DNA from: Vibrio alginolyticus NBRC 15630 = ATCC 17749
Lineage (GTDB): Bacteria > Pseudomonadota > Gammaproteobacteria > Enterobacterales > Vibrionaceae
Reading direction: 5' to 3'
Assembly (NCBI RefSeq): GCF_000354175.2
Contig: NC_022359.1
Span: 780,001-812,000, forward strand
DNA: 32,000 bases
The notes below the pieces were generated by a model. It saw only the letters and a list, made by a program, of their open reading frames with translations, was not told the origin of the DNA and made no database searches. Each line of letters begins with the position of its first letter. Positions within the stretch are counted from its first letter, which is position 1. Both the position numbers and the translations under genes were made by a program. Below are positions 7,662 to 25,120 of this stretch, piece by piece.

Positions 7662-8333
7662 TTAGGAGTGCTGAGCAGGAGCTTGGAGCGGCAGGTGACC
7701 AGTTTTTACCCAAATGATCGTTTCTTGCTCTACAAAAGGAAAATGCTCGCTCATATGTGGGCTTCGGATCCAAGAGAGAGCGGGATAGGTACCTAGCTCG
7801 TCTCTAAACTCTCCTGACAATACGAAAATTTCTTCACCACCAAAGTGACGGGGTGGTTGAAACTTCTCACCTTTTGGCCATTTAACCAACGCGACATGTT
7901 CGTGCTCAAAATGATGCAGAGGCATGACTTGCAACCCACCGACACCACTCTGCCAGCTCGCTTGGTTTGTATTAATGCGAACTGTTTCAAGATCCTCAGA
8001 TTCGAACTGATTTAGTTTAACTAAAATCACACAGCCTTCTTTGCTAAATGGTGCGTGTTGACTTCCTGGAGGGTTACGAAGGTAAGTGCCAGCAGGGTAG
8101 TCACCGTATTCGTCAGAGAATACTCCCTCGAGCACCAATATTTCTTCTCCTCGAGGGTGAGGATGAGTCGAAAACTGCGAATTTGGCTTGTACTTAACGA
8201 CGCTGGTGGTATGCCCTGATTCTTTGGCTTCTCGTTCCAAAGGTTTGCGCCACACACCTTTGGAAGGGCTGGCGATCCACTCCTGTTGAGCAGTATCTAT
8301 CACGATTCTTTTTGAAAAATCCATATTCAACAT
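7662..8333 (-). CDS. Bicupin protein (two ChrR-like cupin domains; no anti-sigma N-domain)
   Basis: Two repeated modules of similar design: ...HPHPRGEEILVLEGVFSDEYGDYPAGTYLRNPPGSQHAPF... and ...PPRHFGGEEIFVLSGEFRDELGTYPALSWIRSPHMSEHFPF.... Each has the G-x5-HxH...E...H cupin-type pattern seen in the ChrR C-terminal domain. Confidence 0.75.
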   Translation of the reverse strand: MLNMDFSKRIVIDTAQQEWIASPSKGVWRKPLEREAKESGHTTSVVKYKPNSQFSTHPHPRGEEILVLEGVFSDEYGDYPAGTYLRNPPGSQHAPFSKEGCVILVKLNQFESEDLETVRINTNQASWQSGVGGLQVMPLHHFEHEHVALVKWPKGEKFQPPRHFGGEEIFVLSGEFRDELGTYPALSWIRSPHMSEHFPFVEQETIIWVKTGHLPLQAPAQHS

Positions 8334-8484
8334 ATTGAAATTCCGTTACTTATTTAATTACTAATTCTCATTAGTATACGTATAAAAAACATCAATTGAT
8401 TCATTTGTTGATAGCCCAATTCATGGATTGAGTACGAACATGAAATCGGAGCCTAATTTAAATTTCTGCTTGTGTAATGAGAAT

Positions 8485-8499
8485 TGTTATATTATAACA
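8485..8499. promoter_or_regulatory. Candidate Zur box 1 (perfect 15-bp palindrome)
   Basis: TGTTATATTATAACA equals the core of the gamma-proteobacterial Zur consensus GAAATGTTATAWTATAACATTTC. It lies 43 bp upstream of the GTG of the His-rich OMP gene. Confidence 0.65.
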
Positions 8500-8512
8500 T
8501 CGAAAAATTAAA

Positions 8513-8527
8513 TGTTATAACATAACA
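8513..8527. promoter_or_regulatory. Candidate Zur box 2
   Basis: TGTTATAACATAACA matches the TGTTATAWTATAACA core at 14 of 15 positions. It sits immediately upstream of the AGGAAA SD of the 8542 gene, 28 bp centre-to-centre from box 1. Confidence 0.6.
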
Positions 8528-8541
8528 AAAAGGAAAAAGTA

Positions 8542-9684
8542 GTGAATAAGAAATTGGTGTCTCTCGTGATCGGTAGCATTTTTGCATCCCCTGTTTTTGC
8601 CGACACACTATCGAACCCACAGATTGGTGTTGTTGTTGATGGCTACTACCAAGATGGCCAACGTCATAATTCTGAGCGCGAAGAAGGCTTTGGTCTAGGC
8701 CATACGGAATTAAACTTCTCATCAAATATCGACGACAAGTTTTACGGCGCATTGACCGCGGTTCTTGAAAGTCATGGTGATGAGACAGAATTAGAGCTTG
8801 AAGAGGCATTCATCGAAACTTTGGCATTGCCATATGGTGTAAACGTGCGCGCTGGCCGATTCCTATCTGACTTTGGTTACCTGAACAACCAACACATGCA
8901 CACCGATAGCTTTGTTGAGCGTCCAATTGCTTATCGTACTTTCCTTGGCTCGCACTACTACGATGATGGTGTACGTGCAAACATCGTGTTGCCAACCGAC
9001 CTTTATGTAAAACTTGGTGTAGAAGCGCTCAGTGGTAGCAAAATGTCTTCTGTCGAAGATGGTTCTGAAGTTGGCGTGTACACCACGACGCTGAAGCTTG
9101 GTAGTGACTTCTCCGAATCTTCAAGTTGGCAGTTTGGTTTAAGTTACCTGCGTAACGAAAACGGCAAGGTTAAAGAATTCGAAGATCACGACCACGGTCA
9201 TGAAGAAGAGCATGAGCACGATCACCATCATGGCGCAGCAGTGACAGGTGCGAACCTTTACGGTGCTGATTTTGTTTGGAAATGGGCACCAGACGGTAAT
9301 TACAAATACAGCAACTTCACGCTATCGGCTGAATACATGCTGTTAGACGGTGTGGTAGATAGCAAATATAAAAACGATGCAGAGTCACCAGACAACTTAA
9401 GCGCTTACTATGTTTCGGGTGTTTATCGCTTCAACCCAAGCTGGTCAGCAGGTCTACGTTACGGTGAAGCAGAAAGCTACGATGGCCACGCGCACGGCGA
9501 CCACATGCACTTCACTGCACTGAATGATAAAGAAATGGATGCGATGATCGCATGGGATTCTTCTCACTTTGGTACTATCCGTGCTCAATACACTCGCATT
9601 GATAACCAAGACAGCGAGACAGACAACGTATTCACTCTGCAATACGTGATGACATTTGGAGCGCACGGTGCACATGCGTTCTAA
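8542..9684 (+). CDS. His-rich outer-membrane beta-barrel-type protein (probable zinc-regulated OMP)
   Basis: GTG start with an AGGAAA SD. Signal peptide VNKKLVSLVIGSIFASPVFA|D. Amphipathic beta-strand-like segments run throughout, and the C-terminus ...FTLQYVMTFGAHGAHAF ends in Phe, an OMP beta-signal-like feature. Acidic His clusters are EDHDHGHEEEHEHDHHHG and GHAHGDHMH. There is no TonB plug or TonB box. Confidence 0.75.
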   Translation: MNKKLVSLVIGSIFASPVFADTLSNPQIGVVVDGYYQDGQRHNSEREEGFGLGHTELNFSSNIDDKFYGALTAVLESHGDETELELEEAFIETLALPYGVNVRAGRFLSDFGYLNNQHMHTDSFVERPIAYRTFLGSHYYDDGVRANIVLPTDLYVKLGVEALSGSKMSSVEDGSEVGVYTTTLKLGSDFSESSSWQFGLSYLRNENGKVKEFEDHDHGHEEEHEHDHHHGAAVTGANLYGADFVWKWAPDGNYKYSNFTLSAEYMLLDGVVDSKYKNDAESPDNLSAYYVSGVYRFNPSWSAGLRYGEAESYDGHAHGDHMHFTALNDKEMDAMIAWDSSHFGTIRAQYTRIDNQDSETDNVFTLQYVMTFGAHGAHAF

Positions 9685-10600
9685 GCTGACATTAAATAAA
9701 TGCAGTTTAGCGATGATGGCGGCGGGGGCTGCCATCATCTCTTCACCTGCTTTGGCTCTGAACATCTTTGTTTGTGAGCCAGAATGGAAAGCCCTTCTCG
9801 AAAGTCACGCCCCAGACGCGACCATCTATTCCGCGACCACCGCCAAGCAAGATCCTCATTATGTACAAGCTCGCCCTTCTTTGATTGCAAAGATGCGCCA
9901 AGCCGACATGGCAATGTGTTCCGGCGCGGAGTTAGAAGTAGGATGGTTGCCTATGTTGCAAGTTCGCAGTAGCAATGGTGCGGTGAAAAACGGTTCACAA
10001 AGCATGATCTACGCGACCGATTTCGTGCGCATGTTAGACACTCATGATCATGTCGACCGCAGCATGGGGGACATTCATGCGCACGGAAACCCACATGTAC
10101 AGTTTGCGGCGAATGACATGGTTGCGATTTCGCGTGCTTTGACGGAACGTTTGAAGAGCATCGATCCTGATAACGCGCAAAGCTATCAAGTGAATGGTAT
10201 GAAGTTCCGCGCTCACTGGCGTAAAAAGCTCAATGAGTGGAATGAGAAAGCCGCGCCATTAAAGGGTAAACAAGTGGTGGGCTATCACGAAACCTACCGT
10301 TACCTATATGATTGGCTTGGCATGGAGCAAATCGCTGACCTCGAACCAAAGCCGGGCATTTCTCCTACCACTTCTCACCTTCAATCCTTAACTAAGTTGG
10401 ACTCGGATTCTTTTGAAGCGATTGTCTACTCGTCGCATCAAGACCAGCGTCCTGCAAACTGGCTACAGAAACAAACCAATAAGCCGCTGATTCAGCTGCC
10501 TTTAACGGTTTCTGATGGCGAAAGCTTGGATGAAATGTACGACCAAGTTATCGATGATTTGTTGGATGTGCTCGTGCAACCTGTTCCGGTGAAGATCTAA
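9674..10600 (+). CDS. Periplasmic metal (zinc-type) binding protein, cluster A-I ZnuA/TroA family
   Basis: Signal peptide MRSKLTLNKCSLAMMAAGAAIISSPALA|L. Conserved DPHY and GNPHVQF His motifs, HETYRYL and the spacing are typical of ZnuA/TroA SBPs. There is also a His-rich patch DTHDHVDRSMGDIHAHGNPH. The ATG at 9674 overlaps the upstream stop (9682-9684) by 11 nt. Confidence 0.85.
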   Translation: MRSKLTLNKCSLAMMAAGAAIISSPALALNIFVCEPEWKALLESHAPDATIYSATTAKQDPHYVQARPSLIAKMRQADMAMCSGAELEVGWLPMLQVRSSNGAVKNGSQSMIYATDFVRMLDTHDHVDRSMGDIHAHGNPHVQFAANDMVAISRALTERLKSIDPDNAQSYQVNGMKFRAHWRKKLNEWNEKAAPLKGKQVVGYHETYRYLYDWLGMEQIADLEPKPGISPTTSHLQSLTKLDSDSFEAIVYSSHQDQRPANWLQKQTNKPLIQLPLTVSDGESLDEMYDQVIDDLLDVLVQPVPVKI

Positions 10601-10603
10601 ACC

Positions 10604-11398
10604 ATGGCAGATTATGCATGGCTATTACCTGCGGTGCTGTGTGGCTTGATTGCTCTGGTCGGTAACGTGGTGCTCGGGCAGCAAGTGTTAAAACGCCAAA
10701 TTATCTTTATTGATTTGGCGGTGGCACAAGTTGCGGCCTTGGGGGCTGCACTAAGTCACTATTGGTTGAACCAATACGATCTCTTTTCTGGTTCTTTCTT
10801 TGGTGAGATGGTTGGCCCTTGGGTGATGTCTTTGATGCTTTGCGGTTTGATTGCCTTAATGGAGAAACGATACCAGCAACATTTAGAGCCCATGATTGGC
10901 AGCTTGTTTGTCGTGTCTGCATCGCTGGCGATCCTGCTGGTGAGTAAAGACCCACACGGCGGAGACTTTATTCAAGGCATTCTTAATGGGCAATTGTTAT
11001 GGGCGACTTGGGCAGACGTTTGGCCTTTGGCACTCATTACCGCTGCGATGTTGCTATTGGTTTGGTTAAAACCTGCGTTTATGCGCGGTAGTGGTTTTTA
11101 TCTGATCTTTGCAATCCTGATGCCCATTACGGTCAAGTTAACCGGCATTTATTTAGAATTTGCTTTGTTGGTTATTCCAGCTTTATGTGCGGCAGCATTG
11201 AAGGGAACTCGATTCTTTGTCGCTAGTATCAGCATTGGTATTGTTGGGATCTTATCGGGTATTGCCGCATCGGCTCGCTATGACTTACCGAGTGGTGCGA
11301 GTATTGTGATCACCCTGTTTATTGCTGGCATGTTGTTTAATCTCTTGCTTCAGCCTTTTCTGGTGAAAATAACAAAACCAGCTTTTGTAAGAGATTAA
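10604..11398 (+). CDS. ABC-3 family (ZnuB-like) metal-transporter permease
   Basis: 264 aa and very hydrophobic (~8 TM). Blocks align with my memory of E. coli ZnuB: [27 protein letters not shown] vs [38 protein letters not shown] vs [22 protein letters not shown] vs YDTPAGPSVVL. It starts 3 nt after the SBP stop. Confidence 0.8.
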   Translation: [264 protein letters not shown]

Positions 11399-11410
11399 GA
11401 GACAAGTAAT

Positions 11411-11456
11411 ATTGGTCTGATGAAGTAGTATTTGATTAATCAGACCAATACTTTTC
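11411..11456 (+). terminator. Intrinsic terminator ending the metal-uptake operon
   Basis: 11-bp stem ATTGGTCTGAT / ATCAGACCAAT with a 17-nt loop, followed by ACTTTTCT. Confidence 0.65.
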
Positions 11457-11698
11457 TATCCAAGTCCTCCAATCGTGTAACTTTGCGCCTTCCAACACAC
11501 TTTCTTACGTTGATCTTGCCATAGTCATCAAGTTGCCTTGATTAGTTCACATTCGACTCCCAGACTGTTTCTATAGTTTTTATTAGATATAAAAGACCCT
11601 GCGTATGAGAAGCGCAGCTGTAACGCGACTAGGCATAAAAACAAAAAACGCTAGGGATACAAGCGAATTTGTAATCTCAACATTTAAGGAAGACCAAG

Positions 11699-12678: not shown

Positions 12679-14283
12679 CTAGTAGCTCGCTTGAATGCTG
12701 ACACCGCTATAGTTTGAGTAACCTTGAATCATGACGTGATAACGTCCACTTTGTGTCGCACTGACCGTACATGTTTCATTGTTACCGTATTTGAAAGGTC
12801 GGCAGTCCCATGCATTCAGTGCTGGTTTTGCTCCAAAACGGAGATACAAATCCGCATCACCACTTCCACCATACATTTGTACGGTTAAACGCTGCCCAGC
12901 TTCTACATCAACATAGTAATACGCTACTTGACCAGTTGAACCACTTAAACCACTTATTGGCACGCCCGAGGTTAATTTGCCTTCTGGGTCCGGTGTTGGG
13001 TCTGGGCCACCGCAGTCTTGGCCACAATCTTCATCCGTTAAGCTATAAAGTAGCTTGTTCACGCTGCCTCTTGTGTCCGTCACTTTTCCGCTAGTTGCGC
13101 GGCTAACGATCAAGGCCTCTACTTGGCTTGGAGACAGTGAACTGTTTTCTTGAAGATACAATGCTGCTACACCCGCCACATGTGGCGTCGCCATCGAAGT
13201 GCCACTAATGGTTTTGTAGCCACCGTCATACCATGCAGATTTGATTTGTGAACCTGGCGCAAATACATCCACACAACTGCCCCAGTTTGAAAAACTCGAA
13301 CGTGCATCCGTGCTAGTGGTCGATCCGACAGTTACTCCGGAAGCAACGCGTGCTGGAGAATAGTTACACGCATCGGCGTTGGAGTTACCTGCTGCTAGCA
13401 TAAAGCTGACACCTGACTGAACCGCACTTTGCACCGCACTATCCAGAGCGACGGATTGACCGCCGCCTAAACTCATGTTGGCGACTGAAGGTCCGGAAGC
13501 GTTCGCAGCCACCCAGTCCACACCGGCAATAACACCAGAAGTAGAACCCGATCCGGTACAGCTCAATACTCTCACGCCGACAAGGTTGACGTTTTTCGCA
13601 ACACCATACAAGCTGCCGCCAATGGTGCCAGCTACGTGTGTGCCGTGTCCATTACAGTCACTTGCATCTGCATCGTTATCGACAAAGTCATACCCTGAAA
13701 CTGAGCGACCACCGAACTCAACATGCGCGTTATTCACACCAGTATCGATGACATAAGCCGTTACCCCAGTCCCATCAAAGTTGGCACTGTAGTTGTTATC
13801 GAGTGGCAAGTTTCGTTGGTCGATTCGGTCTAGTCCCCAAATGGCATTGGTTTGATTTGCGTCTGCCGAGACTATTGGGTCAAGCGATAGGATTCTGTCT
13901 TGCTCAATGTAGTCCACACGAGGATCAGAACGCAGATCTTTTAGTTGCTCAGGACTCAAGTTAGCGACAAATCCACTTATCGAGTGGTCAAAAACCGACT
14001 CCACTTTTACCGAATACAAACCAGACATGCGGTCTACGGATTGTTGCGTGAATTGCTCGAATTCCGTTGAGTTGCTCGCCATCATTTGCGGTTGTTGAAA
14101 TACCACTATGTAGCGATCTGCAATGGCGATCTCGTCCGGTGCGAGCATTAATGTGGCTGGTAATATGTCCGGAGCTTGTTGTAACTCTGTACTGTCCACA
14201 ATCTCATTGGATTGCGAAAAAGCGAGAGAAGAATGAAAACAGAGCGCGGAGGTGATACAACAACTTAGTAGTTTCTTTAACAT
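12679..14283 (-). CDS. proA: Secreted alkaline serine exoprotease, subtilase family S8, with N-terminal I9 propeptide and C-terminal PPC-type domain
   Basis: Signal peptide MLKKLLSCCITSALCFHSSLAFS. The catalytic triad motifs are AYVIDTGV (Asp), HGTHVAGT (His) and GTSMATPHVAG (Ser). The C-terminal ~100 aa form a pre-peptidase-like beta domain. The 534-aa product from the ATG at 14283 matches my recollection of V. alginolyticus alkaline serine exoprotease A (ProA), both nearly residue-for-residue and in length. The track start at 14331 adds 16 unlikely residues. Confidence 0.9.
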   Translation of the reverse strand: MLKKLLSCCITSALCFHSSLAFSQSNEIVDSTELQQAPDILPATLMLAPDEIAIADRYIVVFQQPQMMASNSTEFEQFTQQSVDRMSGLYSVKVESVFDHSISGFVANLSPEQLKDLRSDPRVDYIEQDRILSLDPIVSADANQTNAIWGLDRIDQRNLPLDNNYSANFDGTGVTAYVIDTGVNNAHVEFGGRSVSGYDFVDNDADASDCNGHGTHVAGTIGGSLYGVAKNVNLVGVRVLSCTGSGSTSGVIAGVDWVAANASGPSVANMSLGGGQSVALDSAVQSAVQSGVSFMLAAGNSNADACNYSPARVASGVTVGSTTSTDARSSFSNWGSCVDVFAPGSQIKSAWYDGGYKTISGTSMATPHVAGVAALYLQENSSLSPSQVEALIVSRATSGKVTDTRGSVNKLLYSLTDEDCGQDCGGPDPTPDPEGKLTSGVPISGLSGSTGQVAYYYVDVEAGQRLTVQMYGGSGDADLYLRFGAKPALNAWDCRPFKYGNNETCTVSATQSGRYHVMIQGYSNYSGVSIQASY

Positions 14284-14629
14284 AAAATGTTCCTTGAAAT
14301 CATAGTCTTGTTGATTTTTACCTAGTACCAAACTGTCAACACGAAAACACAGACAATCAGCGTAGTACGTGCTGAAGTGACGTTACACAAGTCAAACTAG
14401 ACAATGAGCAATTATATGCATAACTGATAATAATTCGCATACTCAGAAACATGATCAATAACCAAGCTTTATTGAAATTGAAATGCAAAGATTCATTTAG
14501 ACTTAGAGCAAAATCCCTAAAATAGAATAATTCTACACACCTGGCATATTGCCTGTTATATGACCTCATCTTACCGATAATTTACGCAATAAAAACCTAA
14601 CTATCCTTTCATTGGTCACAACTCAAATC

Positions 14630-15005: not shown

Positions 15006-15201
15006 AGGCTAGCTGTATTGGTTGAGGAATATGAGGAAAACACTTCCCCATTTAAGAACTGAAACACACTTTTGCCCCTTTTCGTGTTAGCACGGAAACT
15101 GTCCTGCTACCAGACTTGTGTTTCAATAGTGCCTTGTAGTATCGAAAACACTTACCACAAACTCTAGAGATTTATGTACTATACCACCTACTGGAAGCTT
15201 G

Positions 15202-16155
15202 ATGGGTGGTATTGACGTGAACTTATCTCAAATTGATCTGAATTTGCTCTTTGTTTTAAAGCACTTGCTCGAAGAGAAGCATGTATCTAACACCGCTATG
15301 GCTTTAAATATGAGCCAGTCTGCGGTAAGTCGAGCACTGCAAAAAATGAGAGTTTTCTTTAATGACGAATTACTGGTGCGCAAGAAATACGGCTATGAAC
15401 TGACTCCAAAAGCAGAGTCAGTAAGGCAAGACATCAATAATGTGATTACCAGTTTAGAAAAACTTGCCCATAGAGACTCGTTTGATCCGAGCACTGTATC
15501 AAGCACCGTTAAGGTTTACGGCCTTCTTCCTCAGATTAATACCTTAATGCCTAAGGTTATCGCTAAGATTCGGCAAGAGGCTCCAAACCTTAAGGTCAGT
15601 TTGGACTCAGCACCAAAACGTCATTTTGATGCGTTGGTGGCTGGAGATGTTCATTTCGCACTTTCCTCTCATCAACCGCCAAGCTCTGAGCAAAATATCT
15701 ATCGAATGGTTGTTGCTAAGCGTACTTTCCGTTTGCTTATGAGCCGCTATCATCCACTGGCCGATTTAGAGCTAACTCCAGAGCGTTTGGCCGAATTTGA
15801 CTTTGGACAAGTCTCTTTGCAGGGTGAGAAGCGATTGTCGTTTGAGCATAAATACCAAGAGCTAGGGTTAGCGAACAAAAAAAAGCGTTTATCAGCGCCA
15901 GTGCAACTGAATAACTTTAGTTCTGCTCCAAGTATCGCTGCGGAGACTGAGATTATATTTCATCTACCGACACCTTTTGCAGAGGCAGCTTGTCAAGACC
16001 CTCGCTTGATCGTTCGAGAAGTACCTGCCGAGCTACAGTTGGACTTTCAAGAAGTCTTCCTATATTGGCACAAACGCTTTAACGATGATCCTATGTGTGA
16101 ATGGGTACGAGAGATCTTTAAACAGCTCTATGTTGGAACCGATACTTTAGCTTAA
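15202..16155 (+). CDS. LysR-family transcriptional regulator (the IDLNLL N-terminus subgroup)
   Basis: ...NLSQIDLNLLFVLKHLLEEKHVSNTAMALNMSQSAVSRALQKMRVFFNDELLVRKKYGYELTPKAE is a wHTH, followed by a LysR substrate-binding domain. The start is ambiguous (TTG 15199, ATG 15202, GTG 15217). Confidence 0.85.
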   Translation: MGGIDVNLSQIDLNLLFVLKHLLEEKHVSNTAMALNMSQSAVSRALQKMRVFFNDELLVRKKYGYELTPKAESVRQDINNVITSLEKLAHRDSFDPSTVSSTVKVYGLLPQINTLMPKVIAKIRQEAPNLKVSLDSAPKRHFDALVAGDVHFALSSHQPPSSEQNIYRMVVAKRTFRLLMSRYHPLADLELTPERLAEFDFGQVSLQGEKRLSFEHKYQELGLANKKKRLSAPVQLNNFSSAPSIAAETEIIFHLPTPFAEAACQDPRLIVREVPAELQLDFQEVFLYWHKRFNDDPMCEWVREIFKQLYVGTDTLA

Positions 16156-16240
16156 ATGCTTATATCGGGTAATTCGTGGTTAACTATTCGTATATTGGAT
16201 AGTGATATTCTCTTTTCTCGATAGTGATTAACTTGTCAGT

Positions 16241-16279
16241 GATTATGATAATCAGGTTTAATTGATAATAATTATTAAA
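16241..16279. promoter_or_regulatory. Candidate Fur box(es) upstream of the TonB-dependent receptor
   Basis: GATTATGATAATCAGGTTT (16241-16259) matches the 19-bp Fur consensus GATAATGATAATCATTATC at 14 of 19 positions. The adjacent GATAATAATTATTAAATGC (16264-16282) matches at 12 of 19. Both lie 25-66 bp upstream of the ATG at 16307. Confidence 0.5.
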
Positions 16280-16306
16280 TGCAATTACATTTTAAGCCTA
16301 TTCAAT

Positions 16307-18250
16307 ATGAAGCCTCTTTTCACATACTCTCTATTTTCTACATCAGTTGTTTCTGCTTGTATTACTGTACCTATGGTCGTTGTTGCAAATGACCAGTTAC
16401 CTGAGACTGGTATCAATACAACAGCAATGGAAACCGTAGTGGTTACAGCCTCTGGTTACGAACAGAATGTCACAGAAGCGCCAGCAACAATAAGTGTTCT
16501 CACCCGAGAGCAACTTGAAAATCGCTCATATAAAGATTTGACTGATGCTTTAAGTGATATACCTGGGGTAACCGTTACAGGAGGTGGTGATGGCCAAGAT
16601 ATCTCAATTCGAGGTATGCCTGCTCAATATACGGCCATTCTTGTTGATGGCAGGAAGCAGTCTGGTCGAGAAACTCAAACTAATGGTAGTACGTTTACTG
16701 AACAAGACTGGCTTCCCCCGTTGAGTGCAATTGAACGTATTGAAGTTGTACGTGGCCCTATGTCAACCCTTTATGGGTCTGATTCTTTGGGGGGTGTGAT
16801 TAATATTATTACGCGTAAAAATTATCAAGAGTGGCACGGAAGCTTGCGTGCAGAAACGACGCTTCAAGAAAATTCAAAATCTGGAAATAGCTATCAAGGG
16901 CAGCTTTACCTTGCTGGCCCTGTCATTGATGGTCTGTTGAGTACTTCTTTGACTGGACTGTATCAGGAAAGAAAAGAAGATGAAATTGAAGGTGGTTATG
17001 CAGGTAAGACACTCGACAACTATCGAGCTTCTTTGTACCTCACACCTACCTCGGATGACACTTTTACTCTGGAGTTCACCAATCATAACCAAGAGCGAGA
17101 GACCACTCTAGGTAAATCAGTGGAGCGAGAGTCTCAAGTTGCAGTACGAGAATATGAACGCCAATCTATTGGTTTTAGCCACGACGGAAACTACTCTTGG
17201 GGTACAAGTTCTTCATTTATCAGTAATGAAACAGTAAAAAATATCGGTGCAGATAAAGAAGTCGAGAATAGTCAAATTAATACGCAATGGGGTCTGCCTC
17301 TTAATGCTCACTACTTAACACTGGGCGCATCTTTCGAGCAAAAGGATCTGACTGACAATAAACTGTCATTGACCTCTAAAAACAAGCAATGGGCAGTATT
17401 TGCTGAGGACGAGTGGTATCTCACGGATACATTCGCTCTCACCCTTGGTTTACGTTATGACGACAATGAGATCTTTGACGGGCAATTTAGCCCAAGAGCT
17501 TACGGGGTCTGGTCTATTGACCCTAGTTGGACGCTAAAAGGTGGTGTGTCTACGGGTTATCGAGCACCTAGTTTGACACAAATGGACGAAGAGTGGGTTC
17601 AAGAGAGCTGTAGAGGGCGTTGTTCTATTTACGGTAATCCAGACTTAACAGCAGAAACCTCCATCAATACAGAGATGGGACTGTATTACGTTAATGAGCG
17701 AGACCTTTCTGCAAACATTACTTTGTTTTACAGCGACTTCAAAGACAAGATCGAAAGTGAGTTTGTCGATCCGACGTGTACTGATAGCAGAAGTTGCGAC
17801 CGCACTTACGTCAACATTGATGATGCGAACAGCTATGGTGCAGAAAGTTCCGTATCTAAGGGTATTACAGAGTCAATTACACTAAGTGCAACCTACTCGT
17901 ATACTCGTAGTGAAAAGAACACTAATGACGATGATGATGGCTTGCCTCTTGTACAAGCACCTGAACATATCTTCTCACTTAATGGTGATTGGGCAGTGCG
18001 TGATGATGTTGCTTCATGGGCCCGCATGAACTATCGAGGCAAAGAGAAAAACAACATCACTAGTGATAGCACAAGAACGTTGGCACCTTCTAATACTTAC
18101 GTGGATCTCGGTGTGAACTGGCGTGTAACTAAGAATGTGAAGTTAATGGCAGCGGTTTATAACTTGTTCGATGAGCAAATCACAGAGGAAGAGTTTGGCT
18201 ACATTGAAGATGGCCGACGCTACTGGTTAGCTGCTGAAGCGACTTTCTAA
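16307..18250 (+). CDS. TonB-dependent outer-membrane receptor (CirA/IrgA-like size class, probable ferric-catecholate/siderophore receptor)
   Basis: Signal peptide MKPLFTYSLFSTSVVSACITVPMVVVA. TonB-box-like ETVVVTAS. Plug-domain motifs are IPGVTVTGGG...ISIRGM, ILVDGRK and ERIEVVRGPMSTLYGSDSLGGVINIITR. The barrel ends ...RRYWLAAEATF with a terminal Phe. I prefer the start at 16307 over the track start at 16262. Confidence 0.9.
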   Translation: MKPLFTYSLFSTSVVSACITVPMVVVANDQLPETGINTTAMETVVVTASGYEQNVTEAPATISVLTREQLENRSYKDLTDALSDIPGVTVTGGGDGQDISIRGMPAQYTAILVDGRKQSGRETQTNGSTFTEQDWLPPLSAIERIEVVRGPMSTLYGSDSLGGVINIITRKNYQEWHGSLRAETTLQENSKSGNSYQGQLYLAGPVIDGLLSTSLTGLYQERKEDEIEGGYAGKTLDNYRASLYLTPTSDDTFTLEFTNHNQERETTLGKSVERESQVAVREYERQSIGFSHDGNYSWGTSSSFISNETVKNIGADKEVENSQINTQWGLPLNAHYLTLGASFEQKDLTDNKLSLTSKNKQWAVFAEDEWYLTDTFALTLGLRYDDNEIFDGQFSPRAYGVWSIDPSWTLKGGVSTGYRAPSLTQMDEEWVQESCRGRCSIYGNPDLTAETSINTEMGLYYVNERDLSANITLFYSDFKDKIESEFVDPTCTDSRSCDRTYVNIDDANSYGAESSVSKGITESITLSATYSYTRSEKNTNDDDDGLPLVQAPEHIFSLNGDWAVRDDVASWARMNYRGKEKNNITSDSTRTLAPSNTYVDLGVNWRVTKNVKLMAAVYNLFDEQITEEEFGYIEDGRRYWLAAEATF

Positions 18251-18282
18251 TCTACTTACTTTTTTAAGCGAATAACAAAACA

Positions 18283-19161
18283 ATGAATACGAAAATTAAG
18301 TCTGCGATGACCTCTCTGCTACTTATGCCCTTTGTCTGTTTGGCTGGGGAGTTCAATGTAGAGAAGGATATCTTGTTCAAAACTGTAGGTGAAAGAGAGA
18401 TTAAACTCGATCTTTATACTCCTTCGGTTGAATCAAATACTCAGTACCCGTTATTAGTCTGGGTACATGGTGGTGCATGGAAACGTGGGAGCAAAGACGC
18501 CATCCCAGAAAAGAACCCATTATTACTTCAGTCTGTGTTGAATGAAGGTTATGCGCTAGCTTCAGTTGATTATCGTTTAAGTGGAGAAGCGATCTTTCCT
18601 CAACCAGTACAAGACATTAATGATGCACTGAACTATTTGTACGACAATGCTGAAAAGCTCGGTATTAAAGCGGACAATGTTGTGATAATGGGACGCTCTG
18701 CTGGCGGGCACCTCGCTGGCTTTATTGGTGCGACTAACTCGGCATACAACCAAGTAGATTTCTATGAGCCACCAAAGTACAAGGTCTCAGCCGTAGTAAG
18801 CTTTTTTGGCCCTACCGATTTACTTGAGTTAAGTAATAAAGGTGGCAAGAAAACCAGCAAAAAATCGTCTGTATCTCGTTTCTTAGGAGATATTCCAAAC
18901 AATATTCCAAAGCTTGCCAAGAAAGCATCAACGACGAGTTATGTGAATGAAAATACTCCACCATATATACAGTTACACGGCACCTTGGATAAGCGAGTGC
19001 CTCTATCTCAAAGTGAGATACTTAAGGCTAAGCTTGATGAGCATGGAGTTACCAACCAACTTTTCATTGAAGAAGGTGTAGGACACAGTGCACCTGTCTT
19101 TGATACCGAGAAGTACGTTACTCATGTTTTGGACTTCTTAAATAAACACTTTCCGAACTAA
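18283..19161 (+). CDS. Exported alpha/beta-fold hydrolase (esterase/lipase-type)
   Basis: Signal peptide MNTKIKSAMTSLLLMPFVCLA|G. Oxyanion-hole motif VWVHGGAWKRGS (HGGxW), nucleophile elbow GRSAGGH (GxSxG), and a C-terminal His in EGVGHSA. It starts 32 nt after the receptor stop with no intervening terminator. Confidence 0.8.
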   Translation: MNTKIKSAMTSLLLMPFVCLAGEFNVEKDILFKTVGEREIKLDLYTPSVESNTQYPLLVWVHGGAWKRGSKDAIPEKNPLLLQSVLNEGYALASVDYRLSGEAIFPQPVQDINDALNYLYDNAEKLGIKADNVVIMGRSAGGHLAGFIGATNSAYNQVDFYEPPKYKVSAVVSFFGPTDLLELSNKGGKKTSKKSSVSRFLGDIPNNIPKLAKKASTTSYVNENTPPYIQLHGTLDKRVPLSQSEILKAKLDEHGVTNQLFIEEGVGHSAPVFDTEKYVTHVLDFLNKHFPN

Positions 19162-19835: not shown

Positions 19836-21275
<1,440 letters not shown>

Positions 21276-21303
21276 AGGGATCTAACCGACAAAGAGTAAT
21301 AAG

Positions 21304-21335
21304 AAAAGCGCCAACTGATTTCAGTTGGCGCTTTT
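21304..21335. terminator. Bidirectional intrinsic terminator between convergent scrY and scrR
   Basis: AAAAGCGCCAACTGA tt TCAGTTGGCGCTTTT is a 15-nt perfect inverted repeat with A-run and T-run flanks. Confidence 0.8.
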
Positions 21336-21338
21336 TCA

Positions 21339-22325
21339 TTAACAGGACTGACGCTCAATTGTTTTGAATGTTAGTACCATCTTACTCATTTCAAAACTTC
21401 TGTTGGCAATTCTATCTAGTAGCAGTTTCGCACCATTTTCACCCGCTTTATCAAATGCATAGTTAAATGTTGATAAGGTTGGGGTGCACACTGATGCGAG
21501 CTCATCATCACCAACTCCTAGAACTAAAACGTCTTTACCCGGTGTTAACCCGAGCTCTTGAATCGCTCTCATCGCACCGATAGCAATACGGTCTGTCGCA
21601 CAGAACAAGCCATCTAGCTTAGGGTTCTTTGTTAAGTGTTGTTTTGCCAATGAATAGCCAGAATCGATGGTAAAGTCACCACGAGCATGGAAGGCGATCT
21701 CAAAACCATGATGCTGTAGCGCTTGAACAAATCCTTCAGAGCGTTGCTTATCTACCGCGATATCGTCACCTTGCACACCAATAAAACCCATGGTTTGGCA
21801 ACCTTTTGCAACCAGTCTATTTCCCGCTTCAAACCCTACTCGTGCGTCATCATGAATGATGCTTGGAATATTAAACATGGAACCATCTTGACCGACGAGC
21901 ACAACTGGAACGGCTGAGTTTTGAATTGCTTTTACCAGTTTGGAATCGAGGTGGGTGGCGTAAAGAATGATCCCTTCAACCCGTTTTTGGTTAAAGATCT
22001 GAATGTACTCCAGTTCTTTTTCGTGGGCTTGGTGAGTGCTAGCAAGTAAGACATGTTTCCCGGCTTTTTCAAGGACATCGGTTAATCCATCGACACCTTG
22101 GGATGTGGCATGAGAGGAAACCCGAGGAACAATGACACCAACCAGATTGGTCTTTTGAGATTTTAGATCTTTAGCGACTTGGTTCGGCACATAGCCACAC
22201 TCCGCTACTGCTTGGCGGACCTTCTGTTTTGTCGCTTCTTTTACGCCATACTCATCGTTTATAACCCGTGACACTGTTGATTTTGATACGCCAGCCAGAC
22301 GGGCGACATCATGCAGACTCGCCAT
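21339..22325 (-). CDS. scrR: LacI-family repressor of the sucrose regulon
   Basis: MASLHDVARLAGVSKSTVSRVINDEYGVKEATKQKVRQAVAECGYVPNQVAKDL is the canonical LacI/GalR HTH plus hinge, followed by a periplasmic-binding-protein-like sugar domain. It is divergent from scrA. Confidence 0.9.
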   Translation of the reverse strand: MASLHDVARLAGVSKSTVSRVINDEYGVKEATKQKVRQAVAECGYVPNQVAKDLKSQKTNLVGVIVPRVSSHATSQGVDGLTDVLEKAGKHVLLASTHQAHEKELEYIQIFNQKRVEGIILYATHLDSKLVKAIQNSAVPVVLVGQDGSMFNIPSIIHDDARVGFEAGNRLVAKGCQTMGFIGVQGDDIAVDKQRSEGFVQALQHHGFEIAFHARGDFTIDSGYSLAKQHLTKNPKLDGLFCATDRIAIGAMRAIQELGLTPGKDVLVLGVGDDELASVCTPTLSTFNYAFDKAGENGAKLLLDRIANRSFEMSKMVLTFKTIERQSC

Positions 22326-22505
22326 TGTTCCTATCCATTCTGTTTTTCGTTTTTGGGATTGTTTGCAAAGAGAAGATGAAAAGCTCTTTGATAAGTAGCG
22401 ATTCTAACCTCCTATACTGCTCTTAGGGAGAGAATTTGACGATCATTCTCACATTCTCTCTGCTTTATCTTTGATCATTTGGTTTTATTGAGCAAAAATC
22501 TGTTT

Positions 22506-22523
22506 TGCAAACGTTCCCGAAAA
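22506..22523 (+). promoter_or_regulatory. Candidate ScrR operator upstream of scrA
   Basis: TGCAAACGTTCCCGAAAA lies ~40 bp upstream of the scrA ATG (22561). It shares TGCAAACGTTCCC with the proximal scrY site and AACGTTCCCGAAAA with the distal one. Confidence 0.55.
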
Positions 22524-22560
22524 TTTCGCAAGCTCAGATAATAATCCAATGGGGTATGAA

Positions 22561-24000
22561 ATGAATTATCCGGCAGTAGCAAAAGAGTTGTTAACTCTAT
22601 TAGGTGGTAAAAGCAACATCACCGCACTTGCGCATTGTGCGACACGCTTACGCCTTGCCGTTGCAGATGAGCAAAAAATAGATGAACAAGCGATTGATAA
22701 CCTTGAAGGGGTAAAAGGGCAGTTCAAAGTTGCGGGTCAGTACCAAATCATTTTTGGATCAGGCATCGTAAACCAAGTTTATGCAGAAATGGCGAAGTTG
22801 ACGGGTATGAGTGAAATGTCCACCAACGACGTTGCGTCTGCTGGCGCAGAGAAACAAAACATTGTTCAGCGCGCGGTGAAAGGGCTGTCTGATATTTTCG
22901 TCCCAATCATTCCCGCAATCGTCGCTGGTGGTTTGTTGATGGGTATCTATAACCTATTGACTGCTCAAGGCTTGTTCATTGATGGCAAATCTTTGATTGA
23001 TGCCAACCCAGGACTGACAGACTTGGCGAACATGATCAACACGTTTGCGAACGCGCCGTTTGTTTACCTGCCTATTCTGCTGGCATTTTCAGCCAGTAAG
23101 AAGTTTGGCGGTAACCCATATTTAGGGGCGGCGCTAGGTATGTTGATGGTTCACCCTGACTTGCTGAATGGTTGGGGATTCGGCGGCGCATCTGTGTCTG
23201 GCAACATTCCGGTTTGGAATATTCTTGGCTTTGAAATCCAAAAAGTGGGTTACCAAGGTTCGGTGTTACCGGTTTTGGTATCGGCATTCATTCTTGCGAA
23301 GGTTGAGCTAGGCTTACGTAAAGTCATACCTTCTGTTTTAGACAACCTTTTAACGCCATTACTGGCGATTTTCATAGCGGGTTTGCTGACGTTTACTGTC
23401 GTCGGTCCGTTCACGCGTGATATCGGTTTCCTATTGGGTGATGGTCTGAACTGGCTATACAACACTGCTGGCTTTGTTGGTGGTGCGGTATTTGGTCTTA
23501 TTTATGCTCCGTTTGTTATTACTGGTATGCATCACAGCTTCATTGCGATTGAAACTCAACTTCTTGCGGATATTGCGACGACGGGCGGCACCTTTATCTT
23601 TCCTATTGCGGCGATGTCTAACGTTTCTCAAGGAGCGGCAGCGTTGGCGGTGGGCGTGATGAGCAAAGATAAGAAGATGAAAGGTATTGCGATTCCATCG
23701 GGTGTTACGGGTTTGCTGGGTATTACAGAGCCAGCCATGTTTGGTGTTAATCTAAAACTACGTTACCCATTTATTGCGGCAGTTTGCGCTGCGGCGTTAT
23801 CAAGTGCGTTCATCACAATGTTTAATGTGAAAGCTCAGGCATTGGGCGCAGCTGGTCTTCCAGGCATCATTTCCATTACGCCAGAGAAGATTGGGTACTA
23901 CATCGCGGGTATGGTGATCGCGTTCTTGACCGCATTTGTTCTCACCATTGTTCTTGGTATGCGTGACCGCGCTAAAGTCGGTAGAAAAGCAGCGGCTTAA
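22561..24000 (+). CDS. scrA: PTS sucrose-specific enzyme IIBC component
   Basis: The N-terminal EIIB domain has the phospho-cysteine motif ITALAHCATRLRL. A multi-TM EIIC domain follows (GITEPAMFGVNL). There is no EIIA domain, so as with enteric ScrA it presumably uses EIIA-Glc (Crr). I prefer the start MNYPAVAKELL at 22561. Confidence 0.9.
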   Translation: MNYPAVAKELLTLLGGKSNITALAHCATRLRLAVADEQKIDEQAIDNLEGVKGQFKVAGQYQIIFGSGIVNQVYAEMAKLTGMSEMSTNDVASAGAEKQNIVQRAVKGLSDIFVPIIPAIVAGGLLMGIYNLLTAQGLFIDGKSLIDANPGLTDLANMINTFANAPFVYLPILLAFSASKKFGGNPYLGAALGMLMVHPDLLNGWGFGGASVSGNIPVWNILGFEIQKVGYQGSVLPVLVSAFILAKVELGLRKVIPSVLDNLLTPLLAIFIAGLLTFTVVGPFTRDIGFLLGDGLNWLYNTAGFVGGAVFGLIYAPFVITGMHHSFIAIETQLLADIATTGGTFIFPIAAMSNVSQGAAALAVGVMSKDKKMKGIAIPSGVTGLLGITEPAMFGVNLKLRYPFIAAVCAAALSSAFITMFNVKAQALGAAGLPGIISITPEKIGYYIAGMVIAFLTAFVLTIVLGMRDRAKVGRKAAA

Positions 24001-24060
24001 TCTGAACTCCTTAAGGGTGGAGTCCCCCAAAATCCACTTCTTTTCCTAAATGTTTGGGGT

Positions 24061-24095
24061 GCTAGCCAAGCACTAATGGCTTGGCTAGCCTTTTT
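24061..24095 (+). terminator. Strong hairpin plus T5 between scrA and scrK (intra-cluster terminator or attenuator)
   Basis: Perfect 11-bp stem GCTAGCCAAGC / GCTTGGCTAGC with loop ACTAATG, then CTTTTT. It lies 61 nt after the scrA stop and 70 nt before the scrK ATG. Confidence 0.7.
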
Positions 24096-24165
24096 CAATT
24101 TTTACTTGGTAGTGAAGGTGTTCAACACGTTGGACTATCAGGGCTTTAATTTCAAGGTAAGCAAG

Positions 24166-25089: not shown

Positions 25090-25120
25090 TCTTCAGATCC
25101 AATTTCAGTTGAGAAAAATT

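Follow-up and report, generated by a model that had tools for sequence, protein, structure and literature searches.

We analysed a 32,000-nucleotide stretch of the Vibrio alginolyticus NBRC 15630 genome (the window), in which three genes on the + strand lie tightly coupled in the order outer-membrane protein, ZnuA-family binding protein and ABC-3 permease. The first gene (8542–9684, +) encodes a 380-residue outer-membrane protein, called 'omr' in the Vibrio literature, that starts with a GTG at 8542 preceded by AAGGAAA, carries a Sec signal peptide and ends in Phe. The second (9674–10600, +) encodes a periplasmic cluster A-I zinc-binding protein of 308 residues, ZnuA2/ZnuAII, the ortholog of Vpa1307. 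Its ATG at 9674 overlaps the stop codon of the outer-membrane gene by 11 nt, and an alternative TTG start is found at 9656. The third (10604–11398, +) encodes ZnuB2/ZnuBII, a 264-residue membrane domain of the ABC-3 or type II importer kind that lacks a partner ATPase; its ATG at 10604 comes 3 nt after the binding-protein stop (10600). This tight coupling, with its 11-nt overlap and 3-nt gap, had been described in a sequence-only reading of the locus, and the coordinates bear it out. That reading also placed a terminator after the operon. Although a simple consensus scan called no terminator after the permease, the RNA of 11400–11457 folds into a hairpin with an energy of −18.5 kcal/mol (z = −3.66) and CUUUUCU directly after it, and we annotate a terminator-like hairpin 3' of the permease stop codon (11400–11460, +).

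Two Zur boxes, to which no strand is assigned, precede the operon. Box 1 (8485–8499, TGTTATATTATAACA) is a perfect palindrome of 15 bp, and box 2 (8513–8527, TGTTATAACATAACA) ends 14 nt before the start codon of the outer-membrane gene. Both sit where they had been reported, and with up to one mismatch allowed they are the sole matches to TGTTATNNNATAACA in the window, against a chance expectation of 0.11 per window; 0 of 100 shuffles reached two matches. Boxes occupy the equivalent position in all 27 loci of a group comprising Vibrio, Moritella, Photobacterium and Endozoicomonas (L007–L033). Across 87 loci, 32 have Zur boxes upstream, compared with 11 matches in 1.65 Mb elsewhere, and at many of the orthologous loci the box 2 15-mer itself recurs ahead of the gene for the outer-membrane protein. 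Searching the upstream regions of the Shewanella and Ferrimonas loci yielded no Zur boxes of the Vibrio type. By its promoter boxes the operon is a predicted member of the Zur regulon, and the position of these boxes is conserved across Vibrionaceae, Moritella and Endozoicomonas.

The operon is the V. alginolyticus ortholog of V. parahaemolyticus omr-znuAII-znuBII (vpa1307; VP_RS21420-21430), which comprises the same three genes and does not differ from it in kind, the outer-membrane proteins being 86% and the permeases 78–87% identical. The suggestion that this architecture is uncharacterised therefore does not stand: the Vpa1307/ZnuAII binding protein was studied in 2013 (PMC3794297), and 'omr-znuA2-znuB2' appeared in 2023 among the genes most strongly induced by zinc limitation (PMC9817125, in part). 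Excerpts of the latter report 283-, 543- and 1034-fold induction of the V. parahaemolyticus orthologs under zinc limitation, and a return of expression to baseline when zinc was added. PMC3794297 does not discuss the missing ATPase, nor do the portions of PMC9817125 that we draw on, and the coupling-helix deletion described below goes unmentioned there as well. The published annotation missed that the outer-membrane protein is a predicted porin, that the ATPase-less trio is conserved and that the permease has lost its docking element.

In that literature the product of omr goes by the name of TonB-dependent receptor, a label that our porin prediction contradicts. The 380-residue protein has no Pfam or NCBIfam match. 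Its AlphaFold2 model (pLDDT 82.9) is a barrel of 16 strands whose best Foldseek matches are VhChiP, OprP, MOMP and PorB (TM-scores 0.48–0.59, probability 1.0), in agreement with the beta-barrel proposed from its sequence features, and Porin_4 weakly matches 9 of 42 relatives (best E = 2.6e-5). We rejected the assignment as a TonB-dependent receptor given the lack of a PF07715 or PF00593 match, the length of 380 residues, the 16 predicted strands and the porin-like structural matches; the window does encode a genuine TonB-dependent receptor (16262–18250), and that protein matches both Pfam models. We therefore predict a porin. The most conserved segment, residues 109–139 (SDFGYLNNQHMHTDSF..., 8866–8958, +), would correspond to loop 3, the putative constriction loop, judging from the strand order of the model. 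H118, H120, D122, R127, H138 and other residues in it are invariant across the 42 relatives, and its H-x-H..DF motif is retained at 21–37% identity. A His-rich loop 5 (residues 206–237, EDHDHGHEEEHEHDHHHG, 9157–9252, +) joins strands 9 and 10 and, by strand parity, would be extracellular; its pLDDT is low. In all relatives this loop is rich in His, Asp and Glu despite its variable length, and H226 and H228 are invariant. The C-terminal motif GAHGAHAF, which with the stop codon spans 9658–9684 (+), contains the invariant residues G373, A374, H375, A377 and H378, and the form G-x-H-[GP]-A-H-x-[FY] is retained in five of six distant relatives, the protein of locus L087 ending otherwise. The gene's dN/dS is 0.03–0.04, and relatives are present in at least 510 species genomes.

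The predicted fold links this protein to the 16-stranded porins VhChiP, OprP/OprO, PorB and OmpC/F, as do the aromatic residue at its C-terminus and the long, conserved segment taken as loop 3, but sequence identity is only 9–15%; the conserved His and Asp residues, the His-rich loop 5 and the GAHGAHxF end are its own. TonB-dependent zinc receptors (ZnuD, TdfJ, Caulobacter ZnuK/L/M) are likewise Zur-regulated outer-membrane zinc gates, yet these receptors are TonB-dependent 22-strand barrels with a plug domain, against 380 residues and 16 predicted strands here. The loop topology and the selectivity proposed for the putative porin are read from this model, which is of low confidence in the His-rich loop.

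The binding protein belongs to the ZnuA family by its PF01297 match (109.7 bits; cut-off 29), and its PDB sequence matches are ZnuA and AdcA. It scores below every NCBIfam equivalog cut-off (ZnuA, for example, 35.7 versus 268) and therefore represents a distinct ZnuA subfamily. Its histidines H62 (DPH), H141 (NPH) and H205 (GYHE) align with the ligand positions of Synechocystis ZnuA and are conserved, as are H135 and H235, in 79–87 of 88 relatives. All three zinc-ligand histidines are thus in place, and the protein is predicted to bind zinc. Deleting vpa1307 lowers growth in TPEN, and an H69A/H148A mutant does not complement the deletion (PMC3794297). In strain RIMD2210633, excerpts of PMC9817125 describe no phenotype for the single binding-protein deletion and a minor role visible only in combination with a zrgA deletion; growth of mutant strains under TPEN was restored by added zinc (PMC9817125, in part).

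The expectation that the permease would match ABC-3 models was borne out by PF00950 (52.9 bits, cut-off 20.1), with an alignment in two stretches; the profiles of NCBIfam as well as Pfam are interrupted where the coupling helix is deleted. In Foldseek its AlphaFold2 model (pLDDT 94.4) is matched best by PsaC (TM-score 0.72), with HI1470/71, HmuU and BhuU next. Profile and predicted fold together indicate that it is still folded as a type II ABC importer, even though E. coli ZnuB is matched in sequence only at E = 0.003. The translocation cavity of ZnuB is lined by D36 and H40, and the double mutation D36A/H40A impairs growth when zinc is limiting (PMC12236471). The corresponding stretch of TM2 here is DLAVAQ (10712–10729, +), with Asp37 retained and Gln42 aligned with His40, which substantiates the reported loss of the ZnuB-block His. 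The exchange is typical of the subfamily: Asp is found in 229 and Gln in 226 of 230 sequences, so that the Asp-and-His pair is absent, and D37, Q42 and E95 of the cavity are nearly invariant. A DPHGG motif (10949–10963, +) lies in the loop before helix alpha1, whose homology to ZnuB alpha1 suggests a periplasmic location; about 86–90% of the 230 sequences share P117, H118 and G119, and no motif of this type was found at the aligned position of ZnuB.

These features bear on whether the permease is a translocator at all. ZnuA2 could be an extra scavenger that feeds canonical ZnuBC, the permease-like protein serving as anchor, receptor or regulator. Accessory binding proteins that share an ABC importer are known, such as AdcAII with AdcCB (PMC8416893, in part), and the cavity change from His to Gln would fit a protein that does not transport. 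We nevertheless regard this as unlikely: its gene invariably accompanies those of its two partners and evolves under a dN/dS of 0.022, D37, Q42 and E95 of the cavity are nearly invariant, and docking of ZnuA2 onto ZnuB is not obvious because the ZnuA2 subfamily is only 23% identical to V. cholerae ZnuA (PMC3794297). The cargo is a second question. Harder cavity ligands (Asp, Glu and Gln, no His) are unusual for zinc, small chelates could fit through a channel as wide as a porin, and a DUF2946-like CxxC protein is added in many non-Vibrio loci, all of which would suit import of another metal or of a zinc–ligand complex (a metallophore) in place of free Zn2+. Set against this are the Zur boxes, the binding site of three histidines that characterises zinc-specific ZnuA proteins, the need for two of those histidines in the ortholog (PMC3794297) and the effects of added zinc on expression and on mutant growth under TPEN (PMC9817125, in part), and we give a different cargo little credence.

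Absence of an ABC ATPase, first noted for the vicinity of the operon, holds for the entire 32-kb window. A six-frame scan of the whole window found no LSGGQ-type signature and a single Walker A-like match, in ORF 22549–24000, a candidate that we rejected as Pfam identifies it as a PTS EIIBC protein; ABC_tran matched none of the window ORFs of 120 aa or more. All 86 related loci in which the trio is complete have the identical gene order, across a range that runs from Vibrionaceae through Shewanella to Thiobacillus, and no adjacent ABC ATPase was found at these loci by motif scan or in Pfam-annotated contexts. A 'long' sister clade of the permease likewise occurs in ATPase-less trios, which adjoin Fur-family or ZIP genes. 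As encoded, the system is not a complete ABC importer, since the window contains no gene for a cognate ATPase and none adjoins the trio at the related loci. An operon of ZnuABC type that recently lost its ATPase gene and is decaying would account for the gene missing from the window, and this is the sole point in favour of decay. The conservation of the locus refutes it and leaves decay with almost no probability: the same ATPase-less trio extends from Vibrio to Thiobacillus and to metagenomic sister clades, a dN/dS of 0.02–0.06 indicates strong purifying selection on all three genes, and the V. parahaemolyticus ortholog is induced up to 1000-fold (PMC9817125, in part) and contributes to growth (PMC3794297). 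With the same order, no adjacent ATPase in 86 loci and this level of constraint, absence of the ATPase is therefore a conserved trait and not decay.

The permease itself has lost the element by which an ATPase would be engaged. Its short cytoplasmic TM5–TM6 loop (11060–11095, +) is the site of a deletion of about 19 residues that removes the ATPase-coupling helix. The segment W133–F165 measures 31 aa in this permease; 167 of 230 sequences agree with it in length and 214 do not exceed 36, against 50 in E. coli ZnuB. The deletion, present in those 214 of the 230 subfamily sequences, coincides with ZnuB alpha2, whose residues 154–162 are the main ZnuC contact (PMC12236471). At this point the model has a 20-residue TM5, an 8-residue loop and a helix of only 5 residues (157–161), and the permease lacks the coupling helix that marks membrane domains of type II importers. 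What remains of the loop, P-x-x-L-x-G-x-G-F-Y, shows conservation of its own and could bind some cytoplasmic partner. In the 'long' sister clade the coupling segment is the least conserved region (mean pairwise identity 0.15 versus 0.37 for the rest). Some of these sequences retain an I[ST]xxPxxAxxxG-like coupling motif yet have no adjacent ATPase, so absence of the gene from a locus is no proof of ATPase independence.

The sequence-only reading had proposed that the importer borrows an ATPase in trans or works without one. The lack of a cognate ATPase stands; the trans option is weakened because this subfamily has the coupling helix deleted and the sister clade conserves it poorly. ZnuB2 powered by a docking ATPase encoded elsewhere, ZnuC or Zrg, would otherwise leave the pathway unchanged, and it is a possibility that we take seriously but consider doubtful. 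Vibrios do encode ZnuC and the Zrg ATPase elsewhere in the genome, both within the Zur regulon (PMC9817125, in part); the type II importer fold appears fully retained in the ZnuB2 model, the short cytoplasmic loop is conserved, and the sister-clade motif just described would suit a partner acting in trans. However, the main ZnuB–ZnuC contact is gone from 214 of 230 sequences, the trio has no linked ATPase in any of 86 loci spanning several bacterial classes, and induction is mismatched, znuC rising only 8-fold where znuBII rises 283-fold (PMC9817125, in part).

Without an ATPase gene and with the docking helix lost, the permease may import zinc without ATP. We lean, with slightly better than even confidence, towards a Zur-repressed zinc pathway made of porin, binding protein and membrane domain, uncoupled from an ATPase and with a gradient-driven inner-membrane step. 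Under zinc scarcity, Zur would leave both boxes, which overlap the promoter region. This would allow expression of the three genes, whose translation is coupled. The 16-stranded porin would pass zinc over the outer membrane without TonB, helped by its His-rich surface loop L5 and the conserved His and Asp residues of constriction loop L3. The periplasmic ZnuA-type protein would bind the metal through three histidines and probably hand it to a homodimer of the ABC-3 membrane domain, which has neither coupling helix nor ATPase gene; we infer both the direction of hand-off and the dimerisation. The binding protein would gate this inner-membrane step, driven not by ATP but by the inward electrochemical gradient of Zn2+, to which membrane potential and tight cytoplasmic zinc buffering would contribute. 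Two absences, of a gene and of a single structural element, suggest ATP independence. Our analysis supports the broader proposal of a Zur-box-fronted, TonB-independent zinc module that spans three compartments and has no cognate ATPase.

Among known systems other than the V. parahaemolyticus operon, ZnuABC of E. coli and Vibrio likewise has a three-His cluster A-I binding protein, an ABC-3/type II fold and Zur control. Unlike ZnuABC, the trio has no ZnuC, is shorter by the roughly 19 coupling-helix residues, carries Gln for ZnuB His40 and adds the periplasmic DPHGG motif and a dedicated outer-membrane protein. If the trio is ATP-independent, it would resemble TRAP, TTT and ZIP/ZupT systems and NBD-truncated MsbA in binding-protein-gated or gradient-driven uptake, an analogy of function alone. 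MsbA-MD, an ABC exporter stripped of its nucleotide-binding domain, retains gradient-driven transport (PMC4979069) and so offers a precedent. The TRAP, TTT and ZIP folds are unrelated to it, and the MsbA case is an engineered truncation of an exporter, not a natural importer. AztABCD and ZrgABCDE provide further Zur-regulated zinc uptake alongside ZnuABC in the same organisms. AztABCD includes its own ATPase and has no outer-membrane component. Zrg, too, differs from the trio in having its own ATPase and no outer-membrane component (PMC9817125, in part). Many of the non-Vibrio loci carry an extra gene, that for the DUF2946-like CxxC protein.

The operon consists of three tightly coupled plus-strand genes. 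The omr gene (8542..9684) starts with GTG after AAGGAAA; its 380-aa product carries a Sec-type signal peptide and has Phe as its last residue. The ATG of the gene for the binding protein ZnuA2 (at 9674) overlaps the omr stop by 11 nt, and the ATG of the gene for the permease ZnuB2 (at 10604) follows the ZnuA2 stop after 3 nt. ZnuA2 matches the Pfam ZnuA model (109.7 bits), ZnuB2 matches ABC-3 (52.9 bits, split into two stretches), and the omr protein has no match in Pfam or NCBIfam. We found no ABC ATPase in the 32-kb window, either by a six-frame motif scan or by Pfam searches of ORFs of at least 120 aa, none of which matched ABC_tran. The six-frame scan returned zero LSGGQ-type signatures and one Walker A-like match, which was dismissed as a hidden ATPase: it sits in an ORF (22549-24000) that is a PTS EIIBC by Pfam. 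A sequence-only reading had described this coupled trio, named its binding protein and ABC-3 permease and reported that no ATPase accompanies them; that observation was carefully made and is real. That reading also placed a terminator after the trio. A hairpin at 11400-11457 on the plus strand, 3' of the ZnuB2 gene (-18.5 kcal/mol, z = -3.7), is followed by a U-rich tail (CUUUUCU), but a consensus terminator scan made no call for it.

Both Zur boxes claimed for the operon are present, box 1 at 8485-8499 (TGTTATATTATAACA) and box 2 at 8513-8527 (TGTTATAACATAACA), and they are the sole matches to TGTTATNNNATAACA in the window with at most one mismatch; a shuffled window is expected to hold 0.11 matches, and 0/100 shuffles give two. 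Vibrio-type Zur boxes lie upstream of the trio in 27/27 of the related loci L007-L033 and also in Endozoicomonas, Psychromonas and Psychromonadaceae loci, against a background of only 11 matches in the remaining 1.65 Mb. In up to 800 nt of sequence ahead of the outer-membrane gene, the Shewanella and Ferrimonas loci (L001, L034-L086) contain no Vibrio-type Zur box, and their upstream regions share no common perfect palindrome; databases nevertheless label the Shewanella outer-membrane protein 'zinc-regulated'. A gene for a two-domain ChrR-type cupin (7662-8333, minus strand) diverges from the operon and shares with it the intergenic region that holds the Zur boxes (8334-8541). This gene might also be under Zur control, since a minus-strand promoter-like site (8518..8491) overlaps the boxes.

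As a zinc-starvation operon, the trio is already known. The omr protein shares 99% identity with V. alginolyticus proteins and 86% with one from V. parahaemolyticus, and the V. parahaemolyticus binding protein, Vpa1307, was described as a novel ZnuA subfamily member by Liu et al. 2013 (PMC3794297). In that study Vpa1307 was expressed only under TPEN, depended on two conserved histidines for its function and contributed to cytotoxicity, and strain VP3218 required it to grow normally when zinc was depleted; the operon was tied to cytotoxicity and in some measure also to virulence (PMC3794297). Passages of a second paper report that zinc limitation induces the orthologous genes VP_RS21420-21430 by 283-, 543- and 1034-fold, and that their role in strain RIMD2210633 is minor and seen only when zrgA is deleted (PMC9817125). 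The suggestion that no characterised system has such an architecture thus needs qualifying: the operon itself was known, but its absent ATPase is discussed neither in PMC3794297 nor in the passages of PMC9817125, and our literature search found no paper that comments on it. The combination of a missing ATPase with an outer-membrane partner is not known to have been analysed before. The name 'ZnuA2' in a paper on magnetotactic bacteria means Liberibacter ZnuA2, which is unrelated.

We compared gene neighbourhoods, as the sequence-only reading had proposed. The contexts of distant homologs (Shewanella sediminis, Endozoicomonas elysicola, a Thiobacillus MAG and two other assemblies) repeat the trio in identical order, and ABC_tran genes are absent from the surrounding 6-8 kb. 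The Thiobacillus trio adjoins a cobW (COG0523) gene and a dksA paralog, typical company in zinc starvation. A scan of one genome per species identified at least 510 genomes that encode an omr-protein relative. The order omr protein, binding protein, permease is the same in 86/86 related loci with a complete trio; a further locus (L070), whose contig ends after the start of the binding-protein gene, lies outside the 86. A motif detector found an adjacent ATPase in none of the related loci. The only ABC proteins within 10 kb, probably exporters, are encoded by two opposite-strand genes near the Photobacterium loci L020 and L021 (589-619 aa), and their recovery indicates that the detector works. 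In comparisons with other vibrios, dN/dS is 0.03-0.04 in omr and 0.04-0.06 in the binding-protein gene, and the permease gene gives 0.022. This conservation and these ratios led us to reject a decaying ZnuABC operon, a reading that orthologous loci with an adjacent ATPase would have favoured; none of the related loci has one. On comparative evidence, then, the trio is a conserved unit and not a decayed operon.

The comparison also revealed variation around and within the operon. Outside Vibrionaceae, a fourth gene often precedes the trio (L001:7591-7878, L004:5382-5687, L006:5340-5669, L088:3599-3874 and L090:3561-3851 among related loci). Its product of 91-109 aa carries a hydrophobic segment near the N-terminus, a CxxC motif and, towards the C-terminus, a RAPP motif, with weak, sub-threshold DUF2946 matches in three of the five (E 0.001-0.02); the Vibrio window has no ORF of this type. 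Relative to V. diabolicus (L007), the omr protein is 96% identical, the binding protein only 82% and the permease only 78%; the corresponding values for V. owensii (L008) are 95%, 99% and 96%. Because identity and dS jump between the omr and binding-protein genes in the comparison with L007 (dS rises from 0.58 to 1.83), the sequences suggest that the operon (8542-11398) is a mosaic with a recombination breakpoint near this junction, a pattern that fits the horizontal transfer proposed for vpa1307.

The unusual part of the trio is ZnuB2. Its structural model is confident (pLDDT 94.4) and has the fold of a type II ABC importer membrane domain, most similar to PsaC (TM-score 0.72), then HI1470/71, HmuU and BhuU; by sequence, it matches E. 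coli ZnuB at only E = 0.003. A cryo-EM structure places the main contact of ZnuC with ZnuB at the cytosolic helix alpha2 (residues 154-162), after a long TM5 (PMC12236471). Aligned with ZnuB, ZnuB2 and its relatives lack ~19 residues at the alpha2 position, and Pfam and NCBIfam profile matches to ZnuB2 break where this deletion falls. The W133-F165 segment spans 31 aa in 167/230 sequences and at most 36 aa in 214/230, compared with 50 in E. coli ZnuB. In the model, a 20-residue TM5 leads into an 8-residue loop with a 5-residue helix. The cavity of ZnuB is lined by D36 and H40, and mutating both (D36A/H40A) leads to poor growth when zinc is limiting (PMC12236471). ZnuB2 keeps the aspartate (Asp37), has a near-invariant Glu95 and, as the sequence-only reading had noticed, has lost the histidine, with Gln42 at the His40 position in 226/230 sequences. 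Unlike ZnuB, it carries a DPHGG motif before the periplasmic helix. Searching 1.84 billion representative proteins with ZnuB2 returned only 1305 clusters at E <=0.001, which by estimate would make this a minor branch of the very large ABC-3 family. The evidence here makes the trio a distinct, widespread Znu-type variant with a membrane domain that lacks the ATPase-docking element.

A sister clade of permeases served as a control. Its 12 members keep a full-length coupling segment (43-50 aa) and were expected to have an ATPase. Three of the 12 sequences come with enough flanking DNA to judge context, and all three lie in a trio, alongside genes for ZnuA and a homologous outer-membrane protein; none of these three trios has an ATPase. 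We therefore rejected a clean link between coupling-helix deletion and ATPase loss: the ATPase-less architecture is older than the deletion, and absence of a linked ATPase gene cannot alone prove ATP-independence. No region of the sisters is less conserved than the coupling segment: its mean pairwise identity is 0.15, compared with 0.37 outside the segment and 0.47 in TM6-7, and it also varies in length. A working coupling helix in an ABC importer is expected to be conserved, the opposite of this pattern. The simplest history suggested by these sequences is that the ATPase partnership was lost, the docking element relaxed and the element was then deleted. Among the metagenomic sister loci, a Fur-family gene adjoins the trio in L087 and L088, the latter with an additional ZIP-family zinc transporter gene. 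Genes for an NrfA-type cytochrome, ferredoxins and DsrE neighbour L087-L090 and suggest anaerobic hosts.

The three ligand histidines of ZnuA2 align with those of Synechocystis ZnuA and are kept in 79-87 of 88 relatives, among which H135, H235, D128, R129 and D133 are likewise conserved. Where classical ZnuA has a long His-rich loop, ZnuA2 has a short loop that holds D128, R129 and D133, and the protein scores far under every NCBIfam equivalog cut-off. By these sequence features, ZnuA2 represents a separate subfamily of ZnuA-type proteins and is predicted to bind zinc.

The omr protein has been published as a 'zinc-regulated TonB-dependent receptor', a name that has spread through databases and papers. 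Its AlphaFold2 model instead predicts 16 strands (pLDDT 82.9), in line with the earlier beta-barrel claim, and the best solved-structure matches are 16-stranded porins (VhChiP, OprP/OprO, MOMP, PorB and OmpC-type), with TM-scores of 0.48-0.59 at 9-15% identity for the top structures. Pfam detects no Plug and no TonB-receptor domain; as a control, the genuine TonB-dependent receptor of the window (16262-18250) matches both Plug and barrel models. Together with the strand number and the porin matches, this led us to reject a TonB-dependent receptor, and we correct the name to predicted 16-stranded porin. Pfam Porin_4 matches weakly in 9/42 omr-protein relatives. A sequence search against solved structures gave a single match, spurious and via a His-tag. 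Conservation peaks in the long loop that links strands 5 and 6 (aa 109-139), where H118, H120, D122 and H138 are invariant; its H-x-H..DF core is kept in relatives of only 21-37% identity. A His-rich stretch (aa 206-237) between strands 9 and 10 would be an external loop, going by the usual strand parity of porins. The C-terminal GAHGAHxF motif is invariant in 42 aligned relatives and present in 5/6 more distant proteins examined. As a predicted porin, the omr protein becomes a candidate zinc-selective porin, and we infer a zinc-selective or zinc-attracting diffusion channel, an outer-membrane zinc route hardly described so far in Gram-negative bacteria.

We lean, with modest confidence, towards a pathway in which the porin and ZnuA2 serve a ZnuB2 uncoupled from any ATPase. 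Release of Zur would derepress the operon; zinc would enter, presumably selectively, through the porin and be captured by ZnuA2, which would dock onto a putative ZnuB2 dimer. Ligand exchange would then carry zinc to the cytoplasm, possibly through His118 (of DPHGG), followed by Asp37, Gln42 and Glu95, with the membrane potential and very low free cytoplasmic zinc as the presumed driving force. Of this scheme, the parts and their predicted folds, the conservation, the deletion, the regulation and the contribution of the binding protein rest on this analysis or on published work, and the selectivity, the sequence of hand-off, the dimer and the energy source are suppositions. MsbA-MD, an ABC membrane domain engineered without its ATPase, carries out gradient-driven transport (PMC4979069). 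Our literature search for ABC importers that lack an ATPase in nature found none, only this engineered truncation of an exporter. An ATPase acting in trans could also power ZnuB2, which we consider unlikely. According to passages of PMC9817125, zinc limitation induces znuC 8-fold and znuBII 283-fold, a gap that weakly fits independence from ZnuC. Other rivals share what is left of our credence. Tentatively, and at somewhat less than even chances, we propose that in the trio a type II ABC importer membrane domain has shed its ATPase, the first natural case of this kind, and acts as a Zn2+ uniporter or secondary carrier that is gated by the binding protein, driven by the membrane potential and supplied by a dedicated His-lined zinc porin.

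If this is true, the trio would add a third class to the binding-protein-dependent secondary transporters known as TRAP and TTT, and hundreds of proteobacterial species would possess it. ATP-driven transport is what defines ABC importers; a relative that is conserved, under strong selection and highly induced, yet has lost its ATPase gene and docking helix, would show how evolution can turn a primary transporter into a gradient-driven one. Confirmed ATP-independence would make the finding considerably more important, and Vibrio would offer a simple genetic test system, with mutants and zinc-limitation assays already in existence.

The cupin, DUF465 and SDR genes were rejected as members of the system, being adjacent only in Harveyi-clade vibrios. 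Directly downstream of the SDR gene, which follows the operon, lies a gene for a secreted subtilisin-family protease (12679-14331, minus strand) that has an I9 propeptide and, at its C-terminus, a PPC domain. A LysR regulator (15199-16155), the genuine TonB-dependent receptor with its Plug and barrel domains, and a BD-FAE-type esterase (18283-19161) form what looks, from its gene content, like a siderophore uptake and hydrolysis unit (15199-19161). It is followed by a sucrose or fructan utilisation cluster (19851-26575) that encodes a LamB-type porin, a LacI-family repressor (minus strand), the PTS EIIBC, a PfkB kinase and a GH32 hydrolase.
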